Assembly (NCBI GenBank): GCA_958009085.1
Contig: OY253674.1
Span: forward strand, 930,001-994,000
Direction: 5' to 3'
Source of the DNA: Protoeuglena noctilucae
Lineage: Eukaryota
DNA length: 64,000 nt
The first letter of the stretch is position 1. Each line of letters starts with the position of its first letter. The notes under the pieces are model-generated. The model had not been told where the DNA came from and did no database searches. It saw only the letters and a list, made by a program, of their open reading frames with translations. This document shows, piece after piece, positions 2,481 to 10,829 of the stretch. The translations under genes were made by a program, and so were the position numbers.

Positions 2481-5214
2481 TCAGCCCGTCCGGACGCCCT
2501 TGACCTCGAAATAGTGTGGTGCGAGCTCCGTCAGCCAATCAGATTGGATGCTGACGACTCCCTCCATCTCGTAAACCCTGCGCCACGGTCAGTCCGCTAT
2601 GGTCAGATGCCAGCCCATGCCACCGCCTCGCTCGCCCGCCACAGCCAGCGCGCTCACCCGGGGAGCGTCTGCACCGCGTTCGTGAACACCACCCACTGCG
2701 GCTGGCACCCGTGCAGGACCGACCCCTTGCCGATGCGGAGCACGGGCATCCGGGCCCCCAGCGCCGCCTGACCCCGCACGAGCCGGTAGGGCGGCCCGTG
2801 CGTCTGCCCCGCGTCCGGCGCGCCCTCCTCCTGGATCACCGCGGCGTTGGCGAAGAACCCCGCCGCCATCGCCCGGCACACGTCGTCCACCGACGCGTCC
2901 TGGGGCCTCACGTCCAAGCCCAGGCGCACCATGTGCCTGTGCGGGCGGGCGCGCGAGTGAAGCGTGAGCTGCGCGAGGGGCGGGAAGGCGCGGGAGGCGC
3001 AGCGGCTGGGCCTCACCGCTTCACTTGCGCGCGGATGTCGGCGACGCGCAGCAAAGCCTTGTGGCTGATGCCCACGCTGTGCGCGAACTTGGGGCGCCGC
3101 CCAGAGCGCTCCCACGCCTCGTAGACGTTCAGCGCAGTGACGAGGTCCCCTTCTGCCACGCGGAACCGGGCCCTGGCCTTCTCAGTCGCGGCCCCGCGCT
3201 GGGCCGCCCATATCGTGTCCACCCCCAGCACAGCCGCGACCGTGCACATCTCCTCGGCGCATCCGTGCTCCGCCGCCCAAAGCAGGCTCCGCGCCACCAT
3301 GGGCCCCACGGGCATCTCAGCCATCCGCACCCCGTCCGGCTTGGCCAAAGCGCCCTCCTTGTCCAGCGCCCCCAGGCTGTAGAGCGTCTCCAGCGCGCGG
3401 ACCATCGACTGCGATTGGAGGCGAGCGCAAGTGCGTCATGGGGCTTCTTCCATGCACCCGCTGTGCACCGTGCCACGCACGCCCTCCCATGCCCATTCCT
3501 CACCTCGGCGGGAGGGGCCGAGAGCCAAGGGAACCGGACGATGTCATCGACGCCGAGCATCTTGAGGTGAAGGACAGCTCCAGAGAGCTCCGCTCGCTGC
3601 ACCTCTGGGACGGAGGCGGCGGGAAGGGCCAGGAAGTCGCTCTCGGTGCAGAGGCGGAAGCAGTGGCCGGGGCGGACGCGGCCGGCGCGACCGGCTCGCT
3701 GCTGCGCAGACTGTTTGCTCGCGGGGGATACGACGAGGGACTCGAGTCCCGCCACCGGGTTGTAGACGCGCTGCTTGGCGAAGCAGCAGTCGACGACAAA
3801 GACGACGCCCTCGATGGTCACGCTCGTCTCGGCCACGTTCGTCGCCACCACGCACTTGCGCCACCCGCGGCGGGGGGGCTCCAGGCACGCCATCTGCTGC
3901 GGCCCCGGCAGGCCCCCGTACAGTGGCAGGGCTTGCAGCTGCAGGCCCTCGCCCCCCTGGTTGTGCGTGCGGCCCGACTGCTGTCGGATGGACGCCACCG
4001 CCGTCTCGCACTCCTCCTGCCCCGTCAGAAACACCAGGATGTCCCCCGGGGTCCCCTCCCTGCGAGCGGCGCCAGTGCGAGCCTGTCACCGGTCACCCCT
4101 CCCTCGGTAGTGGCCCATGGAACCCTCGTCGACGAGCCCGCTTCCTACCTGTGTATCTTGAGCACCGTCTCGACTGCGGCGCGCACGTAGTCGGAGCAGG
4201 GCTCTTGCAGGTAATGCACCTGCACGTCGTGGAGGCGCCCCTCCACCGACAGCACCGCCGCCTCCCCGTGCACTCGCCACCCCGCCGCAGCGTCGCTGTC
4301 CCACCGAGACCGCTTCGCACGCGGCTCCCCGGCGCCCCCTGCGCCCTCCCCGCCCGCCTTGGCCCGCGTGAGCTCTGCGGGCGCCCTCCCCGGTCCCCAG
4401 GGCTGCCGGAAGAAGTCCGCGAACGCCTCCGCCTGGATGGTGGCGCTGGACACAACGATGCGGAGCTGCGGGCGCCTCCGCTGCGCGCGCCTCAGCAGGC
4501 CCAGCAACAGGTCGGTGGCCAGGGACCGCTCGTGAGCCTCGTCCACCACCACGACGCTGTAGCGAGTGAGGAGCGGGTCGCGGAGCATCTCCCGCAGGAG
4601 CACGCCGTCCGTGACGAACTTGAGCGCCGTGAGGCCCTCCGTGGAGACGTCCTCAAAGCGAATGGCGTAGCCCACCTCGTGCCCCAGGCGACACCCGACC
4701 TCCTCCGCCACGCGCTGGGCGACGGACATGACCGCGATGCGCCTGCGAGAGCGGGGACGCAGCGCTCTCGGCGCAGGGGCGCTGCGGAAGAGACGCAGGC
4801 GGGCACAGAGCACAGGCGTGGCACCTGGGCTGGGTGCAAACCACGCAGCGCCCGCCGTCCGTCCATCCCGCCTCCCGTAGGTACTGCGGGACCTGCGTGG
4901 TCTTCCCCGAACCCGTCTCGCCGATCAGGACCACCGTCGAATGGTTCTCGACCAAGTAAAGGATCTCTGACCTGCGGGGGTGGGCAGTCACATGCTGCAG
5001 GCGATTTTTTGGAATCTGCGGCGCACCGCCTTCTCGCAGCGCACCTGCAGGAGTAAATAGGCAGCCGCTTGCGCCTCTCGGCGATGGAGAGGCGCTCGTT
5101 GGGGTCGTAGGCGTTGCGAACGAACGCCGTCCTGTCTGCGTCGGCGTCCACGTCGTAGGCAACGCCCAGGGACTGCTTGACCAGCGTCCCCGGGCGGAGG
5201 AAGCCTGTCGCCAT
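2481..5214 (-). CDS. DHX35: DEAH-box RNA helicase, DHX35-like (7 exons)
   Basis: [33 protein letters not shown] and QRAGRAGR motifs; C-terminal [10 protein letters not shown]; six GT-AG introns. Confidence 0.9.
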
Positions 5215-5550
5215 GACTGTTGCAAAGAATCAAGCCACGATCGCCGCTGGCGGGCCTCGGGGGGGCAGGCACACTGGCCCTGGCCTTTCCTGTGGCAAAC
5301 AATCCCCGATGGCGGGCCAGCGACCGTCAACGTGCGATGTCGCATTGTATCATTGGAATGTGGGGCCTGTTGTTCCCTCTTCCACGCGTAGGGCTGCCTC
5401 CAATTGCCCCGACACGCAAGAAGTCTTCTGAAGATGGTAGCGTCAAATCTCTTCCAAAAGCTCCTGCTCGTCCCACTTAGTGAGCTCGTCCGAAACGCTG
5501 AAGAGCTATTGAGGGCAGCAGATCCACTGAGAGCGTGATTAGGCCGCTCT

Positions 5551-5875
5551 ATGTGGGGCGTGGTGGCTGCAATCACTGCTGGGGCTGTTGCGCTCACCAT
5601 CGCGTCCGAGAAGCTTGGCGCCCTGGTGAAGGGAAAGGACAGCTCGCCGCAGCCCAAGGAAGGAGGGAGCAAGGAGCGACTGCACCTCCCCAGCGGCGAC
5701 GGCAGCTTAAAGCCGTCGCAAACGCGCTTCACGGTGAGCGTGCGACCGTGCAAAGCGCGCATGTGGAATCTTTGTCACAAGCAGCGATTCATCCGGAAAG
5801 CACGAGCCCTCGCTTGTGGCGCAGGCTCCGCTGTGGCGCGTTGCGCGCTCTGCGCTAAAGAGGACGCCCAAGTGA
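5551..5875 (+). CDS. 77-aa small protein with hydrophobic N-terminus (exons 5551-5733, 5825-5875); candidate ORF1 of a bicistronic mRNA
   Basis: MWGVVAAITAGAVALTIASEKLG... with a phase-0 gtgag...gcag intron of 91 nt, then APLWRVARSALKRTPK-TGA ending 1 nt before the next ATG. Confidence 0.65.
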
Positions 5876-5876
5876 C

Positions 5877-8286
5877 ATGGCGCACGCGGCCTTTGCGGCG
5901 CTGGCCCGCGCGTCACATTGTGTTACGGGAGAGGGTCGTCATTTTGCCAGCGGTTCCTCCCCGCGAGTGGCATGTGCGCGGCCCCACCCGCTATCCACGA
6001 GCAAGAGCGGGGCCGGGCGCGGAGAGCTGGCCGTCGCCGCCGCCGCTCCCCTCCCGGCGGCTCTTTCGGTCCGTCTGGACCTTGCGCGCTCGCTGGGCAG
6101 GCTCGATTTGTCCGACTCCGGGCTGGAGGAGCTCCCCGAGGAGGTGCTGGAGCTCACCAGCTTGGAGGAGCTCAGTTTATCGGGCAACCGGCTGGAAGAG
6201 GTGCGAGGAGTTGCTGCATGTGCCTCGTGCAATCAGCATAGCGACTGCATGTCGCGGAATGCGGCTTGCACCCACCCCGCCCCCTGCAGCTTCCCGACGG
6301 CATCAGTCGCCTCACCGCCCTCCGCAAGCTGGGCTTGGCCGGGAACCGCCTGCGGCGCATCCCCGACAGCATCGGAGCTCTGCGCCACCTCGAGGGCCTG
6401 TGGCTCCATGGCAATTGCCTCGCGGTGCTGCCAGAGACCGTCGGGTCCCTCACGTCACTGCAAGCGGTCAACCTGTCAGGGAATTTCCTCCAGCAGGTAA
6501 GCGAGCGCGAGTGAGCACCACCGTTAAGGGTGCATCTTTGCTCCTGGTCAGCACGGCACGGCACGGCACGTATGTTTGCACCCCTTGTGAGATGCGGGGC
6601 GCTTGCCGTGCCACACAGATTCCATCGTCGCTGGCGAGACTGCCCCGTCTCGACTCCCTGGGCTTGGCCGGAAACGACCTGGCGAGCCTCCCGGACGACT
6701 TCGGCTCTCTTGGTGCCCTGTCGGCCTTATCCTTACATGGCAACCGCCTCTGGAGCCTCCCTGCGACGTTTGGGGCGCTCAAGAACTTGCAGGCGAGCGG
6801 CATGGGCGGTGTTGCGCTCGCCGGGTGCGGTGTGGTATACACACGCTCGCATGCATGTGATGGCGCGACCTGCGTCACACGTCCGCAGTCCGTGTCATTA
6901 CAAGGCAACGCCCTGGGCCACCTCCCAGACGACCTGTCGGGTCTCACATCGCTGACGTCTCTCAACGTCGCCGACAACGACGCCCTCGCCTCCCTGCCCC
7001 CGTCCCTCTTCACCCTCCCCTCCCTCGCCTCTGTCGTCGCCTACGGCTGCCGCATCCGTGACGTCCCACCCCACACCCTGGCTGCCCCCGCCCTCCGCTA
7101 CCTGTGGCTCGAGGGCAACCCTCTCTCACCCCAGGCCCTCGCCGCCCTCGCACCCTCCACCCCGCCCACACGCGCCCTCAAGGCTGTTGGGCTCGACTCC
7201 AGCCAGGCGGCAGGGCTGGGACCCAACGGCCTCCCTCCCCACGTGCGCGTGTCCTCTTTAATCCAAGCGCCGTCGGGGATGCGGCACGGGTACCTGAAGA
7301 TCACCCCGGCGCCCGGGCTGGCACCCGGCGCGCCCGGCACAGGCCGCGCGCTCGTCGTCGCGTTCGGCTCTGCGCCCGGGGACCCCAACTGGGGCGGGGT
7401 GCTGTCGCGCGTGCGGGGGCAGATGGAGGCGCGGGGTGCGCCGGGCGCCGACTTCGACGTGATGTTCGTGGTGGACGCGCGGCGGTGCTGGTACGACGGT
7501 GCGGGTGGTGGCCTGGAGCATTACCGAGGGGCGGTGGAGCGGGCCGTGCGTGAGGGCGGATACCGGGGCGCGGTGCTGCTGGGGGACTCGATGGGGGCGT
7601 CCGCGGCGCTGATGCTCGCCGACCTCGCCCGCTCTGTGCTCGCCTTCACGCCCCAGGTCGACCTCAGCTCGTGCTCCATCCGACCGGGCCGGGACCAGGT
7701 GGGTCGCGGGCTGGCGGCTTATATACACATGTGTGGCCGCATGTCGCCTGCAGAGGCGCTACATCTTCGTACCCCACCCTCTGTTGCTGTTCCGGACCTG
7801 TCCTTTGGCCCCCCCGCTACTCATGCAGGCGTGGTTGTCGAAGCTGCGCGAGGTGGTGCGCTCGTCCGTGGGGAGGGCCGTTGAGGCCGGCGTCGACGTC
7901 CGTGTGCTGACGGGGTCCTGGCAGCATGACCTCGACCAAGCACGGCAGCTGGAGGACATCCCAGGCGTGCAAGTCAAGGTGACGCGGCAGGTTGCGGGGC
8001 ATGAACAACACGTGTGCTCTCTTGCTGACGCACCTGTTGCGAGGTCGAGATCGTGTCCCAGCAGCTGAGCAGCACCGATGGCAAGCATGTTGCTGTCAAA
8101 GCGATGCTGTCGCTCACGACCGTGACCCCTTCTCTTCTGCTTGTCCAGGTCTTTTCGCTGGACTCCCACCGCCTGGCTCATTACCTGGACTCCCAAGGGC
8201 GCCTGGCAGCCATCGTCGAGGAGGGCATTGCCGCGGCGCTGGGGATGCGTAGCCCCACCGCTGTCCGCCTCACCAACTTGCTGTGA
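5877..8286 (+). CDS. Leucine-rich-repeat protein fused to an alpha/beta-hydrolase-like domain; probable organellar transit peptide
   Basis: Many LxxLxLxGNxLxxLP repeats, then a VLLGDSMGASAAL (GxSxG) elbow and a C-terminal DSHRLA. Five introns, one GC-AG (6793-6888). Confidence 0.8.
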
Positions 8287-8439
8287 GGTAGAGTTGAGGA
8301 GACTGCACAGATATGCGCGATTCAAATCAAAGTCACTAGTAGGCGAAAGGCAAGGGCGGCTGCCGCTGTCTCTTGTGACACGTGTTGTCGATGGATGGCC
8401 TGTAGGTGAACCATCGCACATCCCCTGATGGCACACCCC

Positions 8440-10829
8440 TCACTCGGGCACCGCGGCCCCGTACTTCGCGTGCCTCACGACGAGCCAGTCCCCGTCGCGC
8501 ACGTCGTACCACCGGGAGAGCCGCAGCCCGGGGCACTCGAGCGGCTCCTCGGCCGACGCGTCCCCCCGCGGACGCCACGACACCTGCAGGAAGCCCGGGG
8601 CCACCCCGCACCGCGCGCTGACACGCAGAACCAGCTCCATGACTTTCCACTCCGTGCGGACCACCATGGCCACCTCGTCCTGCCCAAACAGGTCCAGCGT
8701 CACCGTCGCCTCCTCGGGCGGCGGGCTCAGGTCCACATCTGCCAGCGGGGCCAGCTCTCCATGCGTCTCGACCAGTTCCCAGTACCGGCGGGGCTTGTGG
8801 TCCATGCCATGCCAGTACCTGGAAGCGTCGGGTCACGGACAGTGTGGTATGGCAGACGGATCAAGCTCAGCACGGCCCCCACTCAGTGACAGCATTGCGA
8901 TCCCAGCTGAAACGGCCTGTACCTGAGGGAACAACGTGCTTACCTGACGGCAGCCCGCTCGGCCGCTTGGCGCTCGCCGTCCAGCACCCGCGAGCCGTTG
9001 ATGGTGGCGACGTGCGGGAGCGCAGCCACCAGGAGCTTGAAGGCGTCTTGCTCGGGCAGCGAGCGCGCGAGGGGGGTGCCCTGCACTCTCACGTCACGCA
9101 GGGACTGCGGGGGTGGAACAGAGAGCCGATGAAGAGAACATGCTGCTAGCCAGTTCAGCGACAAAGACGTAAGTCACGGTTGGTTCCAACGCCCCGTTCG
9201 CCGTTCGCAGCCACCGCCTCTCACCGGCAGGCACCGCAGGCAGTCCAGCTCCTCCAAAGCAGCGATGGCCGTGTCGGAGAGGAACAGCGATTGCAGCTGT
9301 GGGAAGAGGCCCCGTGTGGCAGACAGGGGCGCCTCGTGGGGGGTGGCACTGGGACCTGCGACCTCGGGCTCCCCACCGCCCACCCCCGCCCCGACCGGCC
9401 GCGTGGCGCCGCCGTCGTCGCCGCTCATGGGGCTGCCCACGCGCACGTCCGTCGCCCAGTCCTCATCCGCCTCTGCCCCACGCGGGCCCTTGGCATGCGC
9501 GTGTGTCGCGTCCCCCGGTGTCCCCACCTCCTCCGCCATCTCCGCCGGCACTGACACGGGCGCGGCGCCGGCCATCCACGCGTGCTCGTCCCACGCCGCC
9601 GCCAGCGCGGTCTCCTCTTCGAACCCCGCCGTGGTAAGGGGGTTGCCCCCAAGGGACAGGACCCGGAGCCCCGGGAGGCGCCCGAGGGGCACCGCCTCCC
9701 GCAGCGAGGCAAGGGCATTGTCGTTGAAGAAGAGCGTGTGGAGGCGAGGCGGCAGGGACTCTGCCAAGTCACGCACCTCGCGCTCTCCCTGGAGGCCGTT
9801 GGCGCAGAAGTGGAGCTCGGACAGGGCGGGCAGCCGCCGGAGCCACCGCGCGGCCAGCCAGGCGGGGAGGGCGGTGCCGGAGAGGCGCAGGTGCGAGAGG
9901 GAGGCGAGGCTCGGGAGGGCGTTGATCTGGTCTGCCTCACGGGGGCCGGCGTCGCTGTCACGCGAGGCGGGGGGGTCAGGGACGAGGGCGTTGTTGGACA
10001 TGGCGAGGAACGTGAGGGAGGGGGTGTGGGCGAGGATGGCTGCGATGTCGGCCACGCCCAGGAAGAGGTTGTCGCTGAGGTCCAGGGAGGTGAGGTTGGA
10101 CACGAAGGGCGCCACGGAGGGCATGTCCCCGGCCAGGGCGATGCGCTTGCCGGACATGATGGCCTGCAGGGGTGGGAGCGAGCTGGGCCTGAGGGACGGG
10201 GGTTCTGCGAGGCACCAGCCCCAACTGTCGCACTGTCGGGGCACTGTCGGGGCCTTGCCTGCGTCATGTTGGTGATGTCCCGGGGGTTCAGGATCTTAAT
10301 GTGCTTGTACTCGTCCTCGCTCGCTGCGTAAACGCACGACAGCAAGTCCCGTTGCACATCATCAGGCGCAGGCCCGGCATCAAGTCCGACGCGCCCACGC
10401 CCGCATCAAAGCCCCTCACTGTTGTATCGCTGGAGGAACTCATGGGCGAAGGTGGTGCCCAGGAGGACCTTGCCCGGGCGAACGAACGACCCCGACCCAG
10501 CGCGCACGCAGTGGAAGCGGCGCACGCCGTCCAGGGTCCCATCGTGCGTACCCCTCGCCGGGTCGTCCCTGCAAGGCACAGCAGCTGCCCTATCCGCAAC
10601 GAAACGAAGCAGCCGCTTTGACCGCATCGAAGCAGAGCAACTACCCTATCCGCATCGCGCGGGGCAAGTCGAGGCAGCGAATGTTGTCGCCGTTGACTGA
10701 CCATTCGACGCCGAGCCAGAGCCCGGCGAGCTTGCCATCGCCGAGCTCTCCCTCGAAACGAACAGTGCCCTTGTATAGGTTGTCCGAAGAAACGACGCGG
10801 GCCCCCAGCCAGCTCGACTGCGTCGCCAT
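8440..10829 (-). CDS. TBCE: Tubulin-folding cofactor E (CAP-Gly, LRR, Ubl)
   Basis: CAP-Gly motif GTVRFEG...WLGVEW/DDPARGTHDG, LRR core, LRR-cap INGSRVLDGERQAAER, C-terminal ubiquitin-like LSRWYDVRDGD. Confidence 0.88.

Follow-up and report, generated by a model that had tools for sequence, protein, structure and literature searches.

The window analysed here is the whole 64,000-nucleotide (nt) stretch of Protoeuglena noctilucae DNA at positions 930,001 to 994,000 of contig OY253674.1 (assembly GCA_958009085.1). On its plus strand it carries a short open reading frame (ORF1) directly followed by a long one (ORF2), which encodes a leucine-rich repeat (LRR) protein with a predicted hydrolase domain. 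An earlier sequence-only reading had proposed that the two are translated from one bicistronic mRNA by leaky scanning. ORF1 starts at ATG 5551 and consists of two exons (5551-5733 and 5825-5875) of 234 nt in total, encoding 77 amino acids (aa), with an intron of 91 nt between them (5734-5824; GT at 5734, AG at 5823-5824). Its stop codon TGA (5873-5875) is separated by a lone C at 5876 from the ATG of ORF2 at 5877, and this layout, as proposed, held when the sequence was checked base by base. The six-exon model of ORF2 (1806 nt) translates to 601 aa with no stop inside. On the spliced RNA from 5490, ATGs occur only at 5551, at 5877 and then at 5972; ATG 5761 falls within the ORF1 intron, and the stretch 5435-5550 upstream of ORF1 contains none. 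Our ATG scan agrees with the earlier statement that spliced ORF1 has no internal AUG. Because the ORF2 frame on the spliced RNA contains a stop 6 codons 5' of ATG 5877, and the next ATG at 5972 is out of this frame, the full ORF2 protein can be made only from the AUG at 5877. The plain ORF list of the unspliced DNA contains a 777-aa ORF at 5551-7884, which reads through introns that are removed in RNA contigs and is therefore a false product, as had been proposed; it illustrates how loci of this type become false merged proteins under prokaryote-style ORF calling.

RNA cover of positions 5000-8600 was checked in three metatranscriptome runs of one study (X1-X3) and in a DNA-like run (X5). This evidence consists of short-read contigs, from which 5' ends, ends, strand and the linkage of both ORFs on single molecules are not readable. 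A contig of X1 (record 2; 1507 nt, 0 mismatches) begins at 5490, skips 5734-5824, passes through the TGA-C-ATG junction to 6200 and reaches 7394 with three further introns removed; a contig of X2 (record 6; 633 nt) begins at 5527 and contains the same 5733/5825 joint and the same stop/start junction. In X5 the unspliced stretch was found in one piece and the ORF1 joint was absent, while ORF1 is not covered in X3, nor 5363-5483 in any of the three RNA runs, which is not evidence either way. The sequence-only reading had staked its model beforehand on the splicing of 5734-5824, and this intron was removed in the contigs of two of the three RNA runs. All six introns of the locus were confirmed in both X1 and X2, with a single splice isoform in the RNA contigs (Table 1). 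The spliced 77-aa product is also verbatim the stored protein P0004, which comes from a 1701-nt assembled contig. The two ORFs were thus found together on one mature spliced mRNA in short-read contigs, not single molecules, of two runs, suggesting that single RNA molecules carry both ORFs whole. A fusion of ORF1 to ORF2 by alternative splicing was considered and rejected, given the single isoform, the ORF2-frame stop 6 codons upstream and the conserved position of the ORF1 stop.

Table 1. Features of the ORF1-ORF2 locus (window positions)
Feature	Position	Strand	Evidence
Minimal 5' untranslated region (UTR), at least 61 nt	5490..5550	+	RNA contig starts 5490 (X1), 5527 (X2)
ORF1 exon 1, 61 codons, hydrophobic N-terminal 19-mer	5551..5733	+	
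ORF1 intron, 91 nt, GT..AG, contains ATG 5761	5734..5824	+	RNA joint in X1, X2
ORF1 exon 2, 16 codons + TGA, basic tail	5825..5875	+	
1-nt spacer (C), ORF1 stop to ORF2 start	5876	+	Unbroken RNA contigs across
ORF2 exon 1, variable N-terminus and first LRRs, gacATGg	5877..6200	+	
ORF2 exon 2, LRR	6290..6496	+	RNA joint; Pfam LRR_4 6.3e-11
ORF2 exon 3, LRR; then GC-AG intron 6793-6888	6619..6792	+	RNA joint
ORF2 exon 4, last LRRs and start of predicted alpha/beta-hydrolase-fold domain, GDSMG	6889..7698	+	
ORF2 exon 5	7829..7978	+	RNA joints; model in frame
ORF2 exon 6, TGA at 8284-8286	8149..8286	+	RNA joints
Minimal 3' UTR	8287..8331	+	RNA contigs to 8331 (X1), 8317 (X2)

Metagenome contigs were scanned with an ORF2 alignment, which gave 349 pattern matches, of which 188 were confirmed and the best 80 loci used (L001-L080). 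When P0004 was compared by tblastn with these 80 loci, the best matches lay on the same strand, directly 5' of ORF2: L001 and L002, which are the same organism (99.4% nucleotide identity), matched with E = 2.6e-6 and 40% identity over 72 aa, and L079 with E = 0.013. In L001 (GC 74%, compared to 68% for the window locus) ORF1 encodes 74 aa from ATG 5642 and contains a GT..AG intron of 128 nt (5816-5943) at the same codon position as that of the window; its exon 2 (5944-5994) is 50% identical to exon 2 of the window, and its TAA is followed after 6 nt by the ORF2 ATG at 6001. ORF1 of L079 (GC 55%; 5811-5999) encodes 62 aa with no intron and ends in TAG 4 nt before ATG 6004. In L049 (GC 43%) a 64-aa ORF1 with no intron (5536-5730), stored as P0085, lies 156 nt upstream of ATG 5887, where a 566-aa ORF2 without introns begins. 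Near the end of L079 ORF1, ATG 5964 is in the ORF1 frame and ATG 5968 in the ORF2 frame; since the latter frame is open to ATG 6004, ORF2 of L079 may overlap ORF1 by 32 nt.

All four ORF1s contain a hydrophobic 19-residue stretch (Kyte-Doolittle mean 1.8-2.3), and their last 20 residues have a net charge of +5 to +6. They begin with Met-Trp in the window, L001 and L049 and with Met-Ile in L079, and their best-conserved part is the N-terminal hydrophobic segment of 19-22 residues. Shuffle z-scores against the window ORF1 were 21 for L001, 9.0 for L079 and 4.9 for L049. In leave-one-out profile searches the omitted ORF1 was always the top non-training piece, with E = 3e-3 (L001), 9.6e-4 (L079) and 0.3 (L049) among 17,333 six-frame locus pieces, and with 6e-7 for the window ORF1 among 1,285 window pieces. 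The results showed that both ORFs are conserved and colinear in other species, with ORF1-like ORFs preceding the ORF2 homologue in three further organisms (L001/L002, L079 and L049), as the sequence-only reading would have it; L001, the closest of these, also has its ORF1 intron at the position found in the window.

A tree of 43 ORF2 rows was computed from this single gene by a quick method with support from the Shimodaira-Hasegawa-like approximate likelihood ratio test (SH-aLRT) only; Chlorokybus and Mesostigma served as the root without falling together on one side of a branch, and 12 rows had an unusual amino-acid composition. The window and L001 were sisters on this tree (support 99), with Pedinophyceae sp. 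YPF-701 adjoining (99). The four ORF1-bearing rows all fell inside one 22-row clade (97), together with rows of Chlorophyceae and Trebouxiophyceae, and the pair appears to have been kept across this clade. Another clade of 10 rows (100), possibly Mamiellophyceae-like, consists of marine intron-free loci with no ORF1 and carries instead a gene of ~216 aa, 220-240 nt 5' of ORF2.

Two kinds of upstream ORF besides ORF1 were noticed among the 80 loci. In the marine clade that lacks ORF1, many of the loci L004-L048 have a conserved gene of ~160-220 aa with the motif PLMHNLVQQGA on the same strand, 220-380 nt 5' of ORF2, and this conserved colinearity might mark another co-expressed pair. In L050-L075 (GC 0.46; e.g. 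L050 4383-4658) a low-complexity ORF beginning with MM[ST]LSFVLL abuts or overlaps the start of ORF2; near-identical loci differ in its length (44 to 95 aa), and it looks non-coding.

The start contexts were scored against the general consensus quoted in the available text of PMC11892635, not against a species-specific matrix. In the window, ORF1 starts in a weak context (tctATGt) and ORF2 in a strong one (gacATGg), which confirms the earlier claim. The bases at -3/+4 of ORF1 were T/T in the window, C/T in L001, C/A in L079 and T/T in L049, so that neither a purine at -3 (0/4) nor a G at +4 (0/4) was present in any lineage; the U at +4 in three of them is due to the conserved Trp codon. At ORF2 they were G/G in the window, G/G in L001, C/T in L079 (ATG 6004) and T/G in L049. 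Overall, a weak Kozak-like context at ORF1 is thus followed by a stronger one at ORF2.

The number of ATGs between the two starts was compared with that expected from the ATG density of each lineage's own ORF2. None was observed in the window (1.42 expected), in L001 (0.89) or in L049 (6.76), and two in L079 (4.0). For the four lineages together this amounts to 2 observed versus 13.06 expected (P = 2.1e-4), and within ORF1 only to 2 versus 9.92 (P = 0.003). When the expectation for the window was taken from base composition it was 2.45 (P0 = 0.087), and ~10% of random 232-nt windows of the same sequence were free of ATG; AUG depletion is significant only after the three related loci are added. 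The leaky-scanning signature first described for one locus recurs in this way over four lineages, with weak ORF1 starts in 4/4 and depleted ATGs.

The window ORF1 is hydrophobic at its N-terminus (Kyte-Doolittle 19-residue mean 1.8 at residue 1). To judge from these sequence features, its product is probably a conserved microprotein that has a single membrane-type segment at the N-terminus and ends in a basic tail, and it may be located in a membrane. A Pfam search of ORF1 found 0 families, and a word-indexed protein search returned only P0004 itself. On the Protein Atlas its recognition score was 1754, below the mark of 2300, and the top clusters were viral 'hypothetical proteins' (0.92-0.93), which are uninformative. 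At E <= 0.001, phmmer of P0004 gave 7 matches, namely P0004 and 6 long repeat proteins of 511-2687 aa. The latter (P0005-P0010) are bacterial or phage-like, with a repeat unit that resembles ORF1 residues 25-72 (E to 1.9e-9) and 3-8 matched stretches each in the 5 that list them; with a best single-pair BLAST score of 28 bits, they were judged repeat-inflated chance matches and rejected as ORF1 homologues. A profile that included L049 found five proteins (P0085-P0089) of 63-67 aa that are 75-86% identical to L049 ORF1, indicating that the L049-type small ORF is maintained within its clade. The GC content by codon position was 0.49/0.52/0.91 for ORF1 and 0.77/0.57/0.97 for ORF2 in the 74%-GC locus L001, and 0.62/0.58/0.77 and 0.73/0.53/0.83, respectively, in the window; the L001 ORF1 values, as far as composition can tell, are a clear coding signature. 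ORF1 would define a new family of membrane-type microproteins of 62-77 aa, which protein databases have nearly missed (6 proteins among 5.8 billion clusters).

With ORF2 exon 4 as query, 74 longer proteins were obtained at E <= 0.001. The closest relative is P0011 (601 aa, 57% identity) and the closest named one is from Pedinophyceae sp. YPF-701 (49%); the range includes Chlorokybus, Mesostigma, Klebsormidium, mosses, Selaginella and conifers, and the fusion of LRRs to a hydrolase constitutes a family of Viridiplantae that carries no named function. In the alignment the homologues have variable N-termini and none carries an ORF1-like segment; because of this, and because its length equals that of P0011, we regard ORF2 as complete. 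The intron 6793-6888 of ORF2 is of the GC-AG type (donor GCGAGC) and appears as a 96-nt skip in RNA contigs of both X1 and X2.

Pfam LRR_4, LRR_8 and LRR_14 match exons of the window and its relatives, and the LRR half, as a solenoid, matched 4u08_B with Z = 32.9 over 303 residues and the SHOC2 chain 7sd0_A with Z = 30.5. In a fold search with the complete 601-aa model, LRR proteins took up the whole list, and the C-terminal domain was therefore modelled separately; this second model was made from the relative L001 (57% identical), not from the window's own protein, and had a predicted local distance difference test score (pLDDT) of 79.6 and a predicted template modelling score (pTM) of 0.83. 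All 50 listed fold matches of this model were esterases, lipases or peptidases (Z = 14.4-16.4; root-mean-square deviation 3.1-4.1 over 187-228 residues), and Foldseek found alpha/beta hydrolases with a best E of 1.7e-8. By sequence, the C-terminal domain matched no Pfam family above cutoff, with a weak match to Pfam Esterase in 12 of 15 members (best E = 0.004), and a PDB profile search with it gave only 2 irrelevant weak matches. The motif GDSMG was invariant in 10/10, 15/15 and 12/12 aligned sequences, as were H-D and a later H in the ORF2 alignments. ORF2 is an LRR domain joined to a predicted alpha/beta-hydrolase fold with GDSMG as the putative nucleophile elbow, and the earlier label 'LRR-hydrolase' was borne out for fold and motif. 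The protein resembles SHOC2-like LRR proteins in its solenoid and alpha/beta-hydrolase esterases in its C-terminal fold and GDSMG; unlike these esterases, its C-terminal domain is covered by no solved structure or Pfam family by sequence.

We consider it likely that positions 5490-8331 are transcribed as one nuclear unit in a high-GC marine green alga, with a spliced mRNA that carries two separate ORFs and leaky scanning as the route to ORF2. Scanning 40S subunits would reach the ORF1 AUG first; given its poor context (pyrimidine at -3, U at +4), a share of them would initiate there and produce the microprotein, and the remaining subunits would pass it, meet no further AUG and initiate at the AUG of ORF2 in its good context. 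Both ORFs would then be translated. With the intron spliced and ORF1 conserved 5' of ORF2, the earlier interpretation of a bicistronic mRNA read by leaky scanning is supported, and the locus is most likely a real bicistronic locus of the kind known from green algae.

Several observations weigh against this interpretation. The RNA continuity rests on short-read contigs from one study, and a joined contig is not proof of a single transcript. Taken alone, the absence of AUGs in the window is within chance (P0 0.087 to ~0.24), and L079 has the two internal ATGs (5964, 5968) as well as a weak context at its ORF2 ATG 6004. The sequence evidence for L049 is weak (tblastn E = 1.5, leave-one-out E = 0.3) and its membership leans on position and architecture, and the shuffle z-scores are possibly inflated by the hydrophobic segment. 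The ORF1 profile and tblastn gave nothing above chance 5' of ORF2 in the other 76 of the 80 loci, ~12 of which have less than 250 nt of upstream sequence. Among 1.84 billion representatives searched exhaustively with phmmer, P0004 had no credible homologue besides itself. Finally, distances of 1, 4 and 6 nt between stop and start would equally suit termination-coupled reinitiation.

This last mechanism, in which ribosomes would reach ORF2 on the same mRNA mainly by reinitiating at an AUG 1-6 nt downstream of the ORF1 stop, draws its strength from the distances of 1 nt in the window, 6 nt in L001 and 4 nt or a 32-nt overlap in L079, and with such short spacers in three lineages it stays alive as a minor rival, though an improbable one. 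It predicts neither the AUG depletion of ORF1 (2 versus 9.9, P = 0.003) nor the uniformly poor ORF1 contexts, and the spacer of 156 nt in L049 does not fit it. Reinitiation falls steeply for upstream ORFs beyond ~30 codons, and ORF1 is 62-77 codons long; TGGGA, a calicivirus-type reinitiation motif, occurs in 0/4 loci. Mutations of the ORF1 context in Auxenochlorella also changed ORF2 output as leaky scanning predicts (PMC11892635, available portions). Because AUG depletion of ORF1 and uniformly weak ORF1 contexts are predicted by the former and not by the latter, we favour leaky scanning over termination-reinitiation as what brings ribosomes to ORF2. The 1-nt spacer, together with the conserved weak Met-Trp start, makes the locus a compact natural test case between the two, and this spacer design may serve two-gene expression cassettes in algae. 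Alternatively, ORF1 may be a conserved-peptide upstream ORF (uORF), the nascent peptide of which acts in cis, for example by stalling at the stop, and tunes ORF2, while the released peptide has no role. ORF1 does lie in the leader of ORF2, 1-6 nt from its AUG in three of the four lineages, and its basic C-terminal tail ends in P-K or K-K in three of four; according to the available text of Gallaher et al. 2021 (PMC7896298), there may be a continuum between polycistrony and uORFs. We regard this as quite unlikely, given that the best-conserved N-terminal 19-22 residues would already be outside the exit tunnel at the stop, that 62-77 aa and a coding-type GC content at third codon positions (GC3) fit a stable protein, and that with the 156-nt spacer of L049 the abutment of stop and start is not conserved.

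Two overlapping transcription units, with the transcription start site of an ORF2 mRNA inside ORF1 or its intron and the contigs merging two RNAs, would agree with contigs that show neither 5' ends nor single molecules. The 1-nt spacer would force any ORF2-only mRNA to start within ORF1, the tight adjacency is kept in L001 and L079, the AUG depletion of ORF1 would be left unexplained, and no loose ends or contig breaks were seen over 5490-6198 in X1 or X2; this explanation is very improbable. An ORF1 that lies upstream by chance and has no function would accord with its lack of a Pfam match, with the outcome of the exhaustive protein search and with the Atlas recognition of 1754 against a mark of 2300. 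Homologues at the same place in three other organisms, one with a shared intron site, and the coding-type GC3 of L001 ORF1 speak against it, and on this sequence conservation a chance ORF appears already disfavoured, with a probability close to negligible.

The ORF2s of the ORF1-bearing lineages are 39-59% identical, and the membrane-type microprotein stays beside the LRR-hydrolase across this divergence, which suggests functional coupling. A complex prediction of L049 ORF2 with ORF1 scored 0.01; it was made without alignments and with an uncertain fold of the partner, and has no bearing on binding. It is conceivable, if rather unlikely, that the microprotein is a dedicated membrane partner or anchor of the LRR-hydrolase, kept with it on one mRNA since the core-chlorophyte ancestor, with their ratio fixed by the ORF1 start context. 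If true, the conserved Met-Trp start would hard-wire the product ratio, the pair would amount to a eukaryotic 'operon' for two functionally coupled subunits, beyond mere co-transcription, and it would give a first handle on the Viridiplantae-wide LRR-hydrolase family of unknown function.

On the 5' side of the locus lies a divergent gene on the minus strand, with a start ATG at 5214 and a DEAH motif seen by eye in the ORF at 4145-4729, which suggests a helicase. Its RNA contigs end at 5336/5342 and those of the ORF1 mRNA begin at 5490/5527, leaving a gap of ~150 nt, which is presumably a bidirectional promoter. On the 3' side the plus-strand contigs extend to 8317/8331 and the minus-strand contig of the next gene starts at 8364; from these contig limits, the convergent transcripts end ~30 nt apart.

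Several known systems resemble the pair. The conserved-peptide uORFs (CPuORFs) of plants, taken here with their generally known features, are likewise peptide ORFs in the leader of a main ORF, with amino-acid sequences conserved between distant species; in contrast to them, ORF1 is long (62-77 aa) and its best-conserved part is a membrane-type N-terminal segment. The CDC26-TTM3 bicistron of land plants and Chlamydomonas, mentioned in the available text of PMC11892635, likewise encodes a very small protein first and a larger enzyme after it on a shared mRNA, and this pairing is deeply conserved. Its proteins are unrelated to those studied here, and the window pair was seen inside a single clade of the ORF2 tree and not in the streptophyte rows, the DNA of which lay outside the comparison.

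The nearest comparison is with the nuclear bicistronic loci of green algae translated by leaky scanning (Gallaher et al. 2021, PMC7896298; Duenas et al. 2025, PMC11892635; both as far as available). For these loci, the accessible portions of PMC11892635 report median lengths of 291-357 nt for ORF1, 40-183 nt between the ORFs and 54-83 nt for the 5' UTR, weak Kozak-like contexts at ORF1 and AUG depletion, and mutagenesis showing that the ORF1 context tunes ORF2 output. The window locus is similar in having a short ORF1 (234 nt) before a long ORF2 (1806 nt) on one spliced mRNA, a very short spacer, a short 5' UTR (here at least 61 nt), a weak ORF1 start and a good ORF2 start, AUGs depleted 5' of ORF2, and colinearity kept across distant green algae. 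It differs in that its spacer of 1 nt is far under the reported medians and that ORF1 itself contains an intron. The host also groups with Pedinophyceae sp. YPF-701, a class not among the species named in the available portions of both papers, and the locus adds to their lists a well-supported bicistron from outside those species.

In the supplements of the two papers, as far as available, the gene pair was not found by keyword and is set apart by annotation and size, not by sequence. Three LRR-bearing loci are listed there: Cre06.g279976/950 (426 + 3012 nt; ORF1 predicted cytoplasmic, with no signal), Cz01g42145/40 (468 + 927 nt) and Cz08g17130/40 (both ORFs large). None of the three matches the window pair by size, a comparison under which orthology with the Cre06 locus is possible. 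The earlier description of the pair as a new example fits these published lists, compared by keyword and size in the parts available: the arrangement is known in green algae and the gene pair is not previously reported in them. Because the kind is already described and none of the LRR-bearing loci listed there matches by size, the window pair represents a further example of a documented class.

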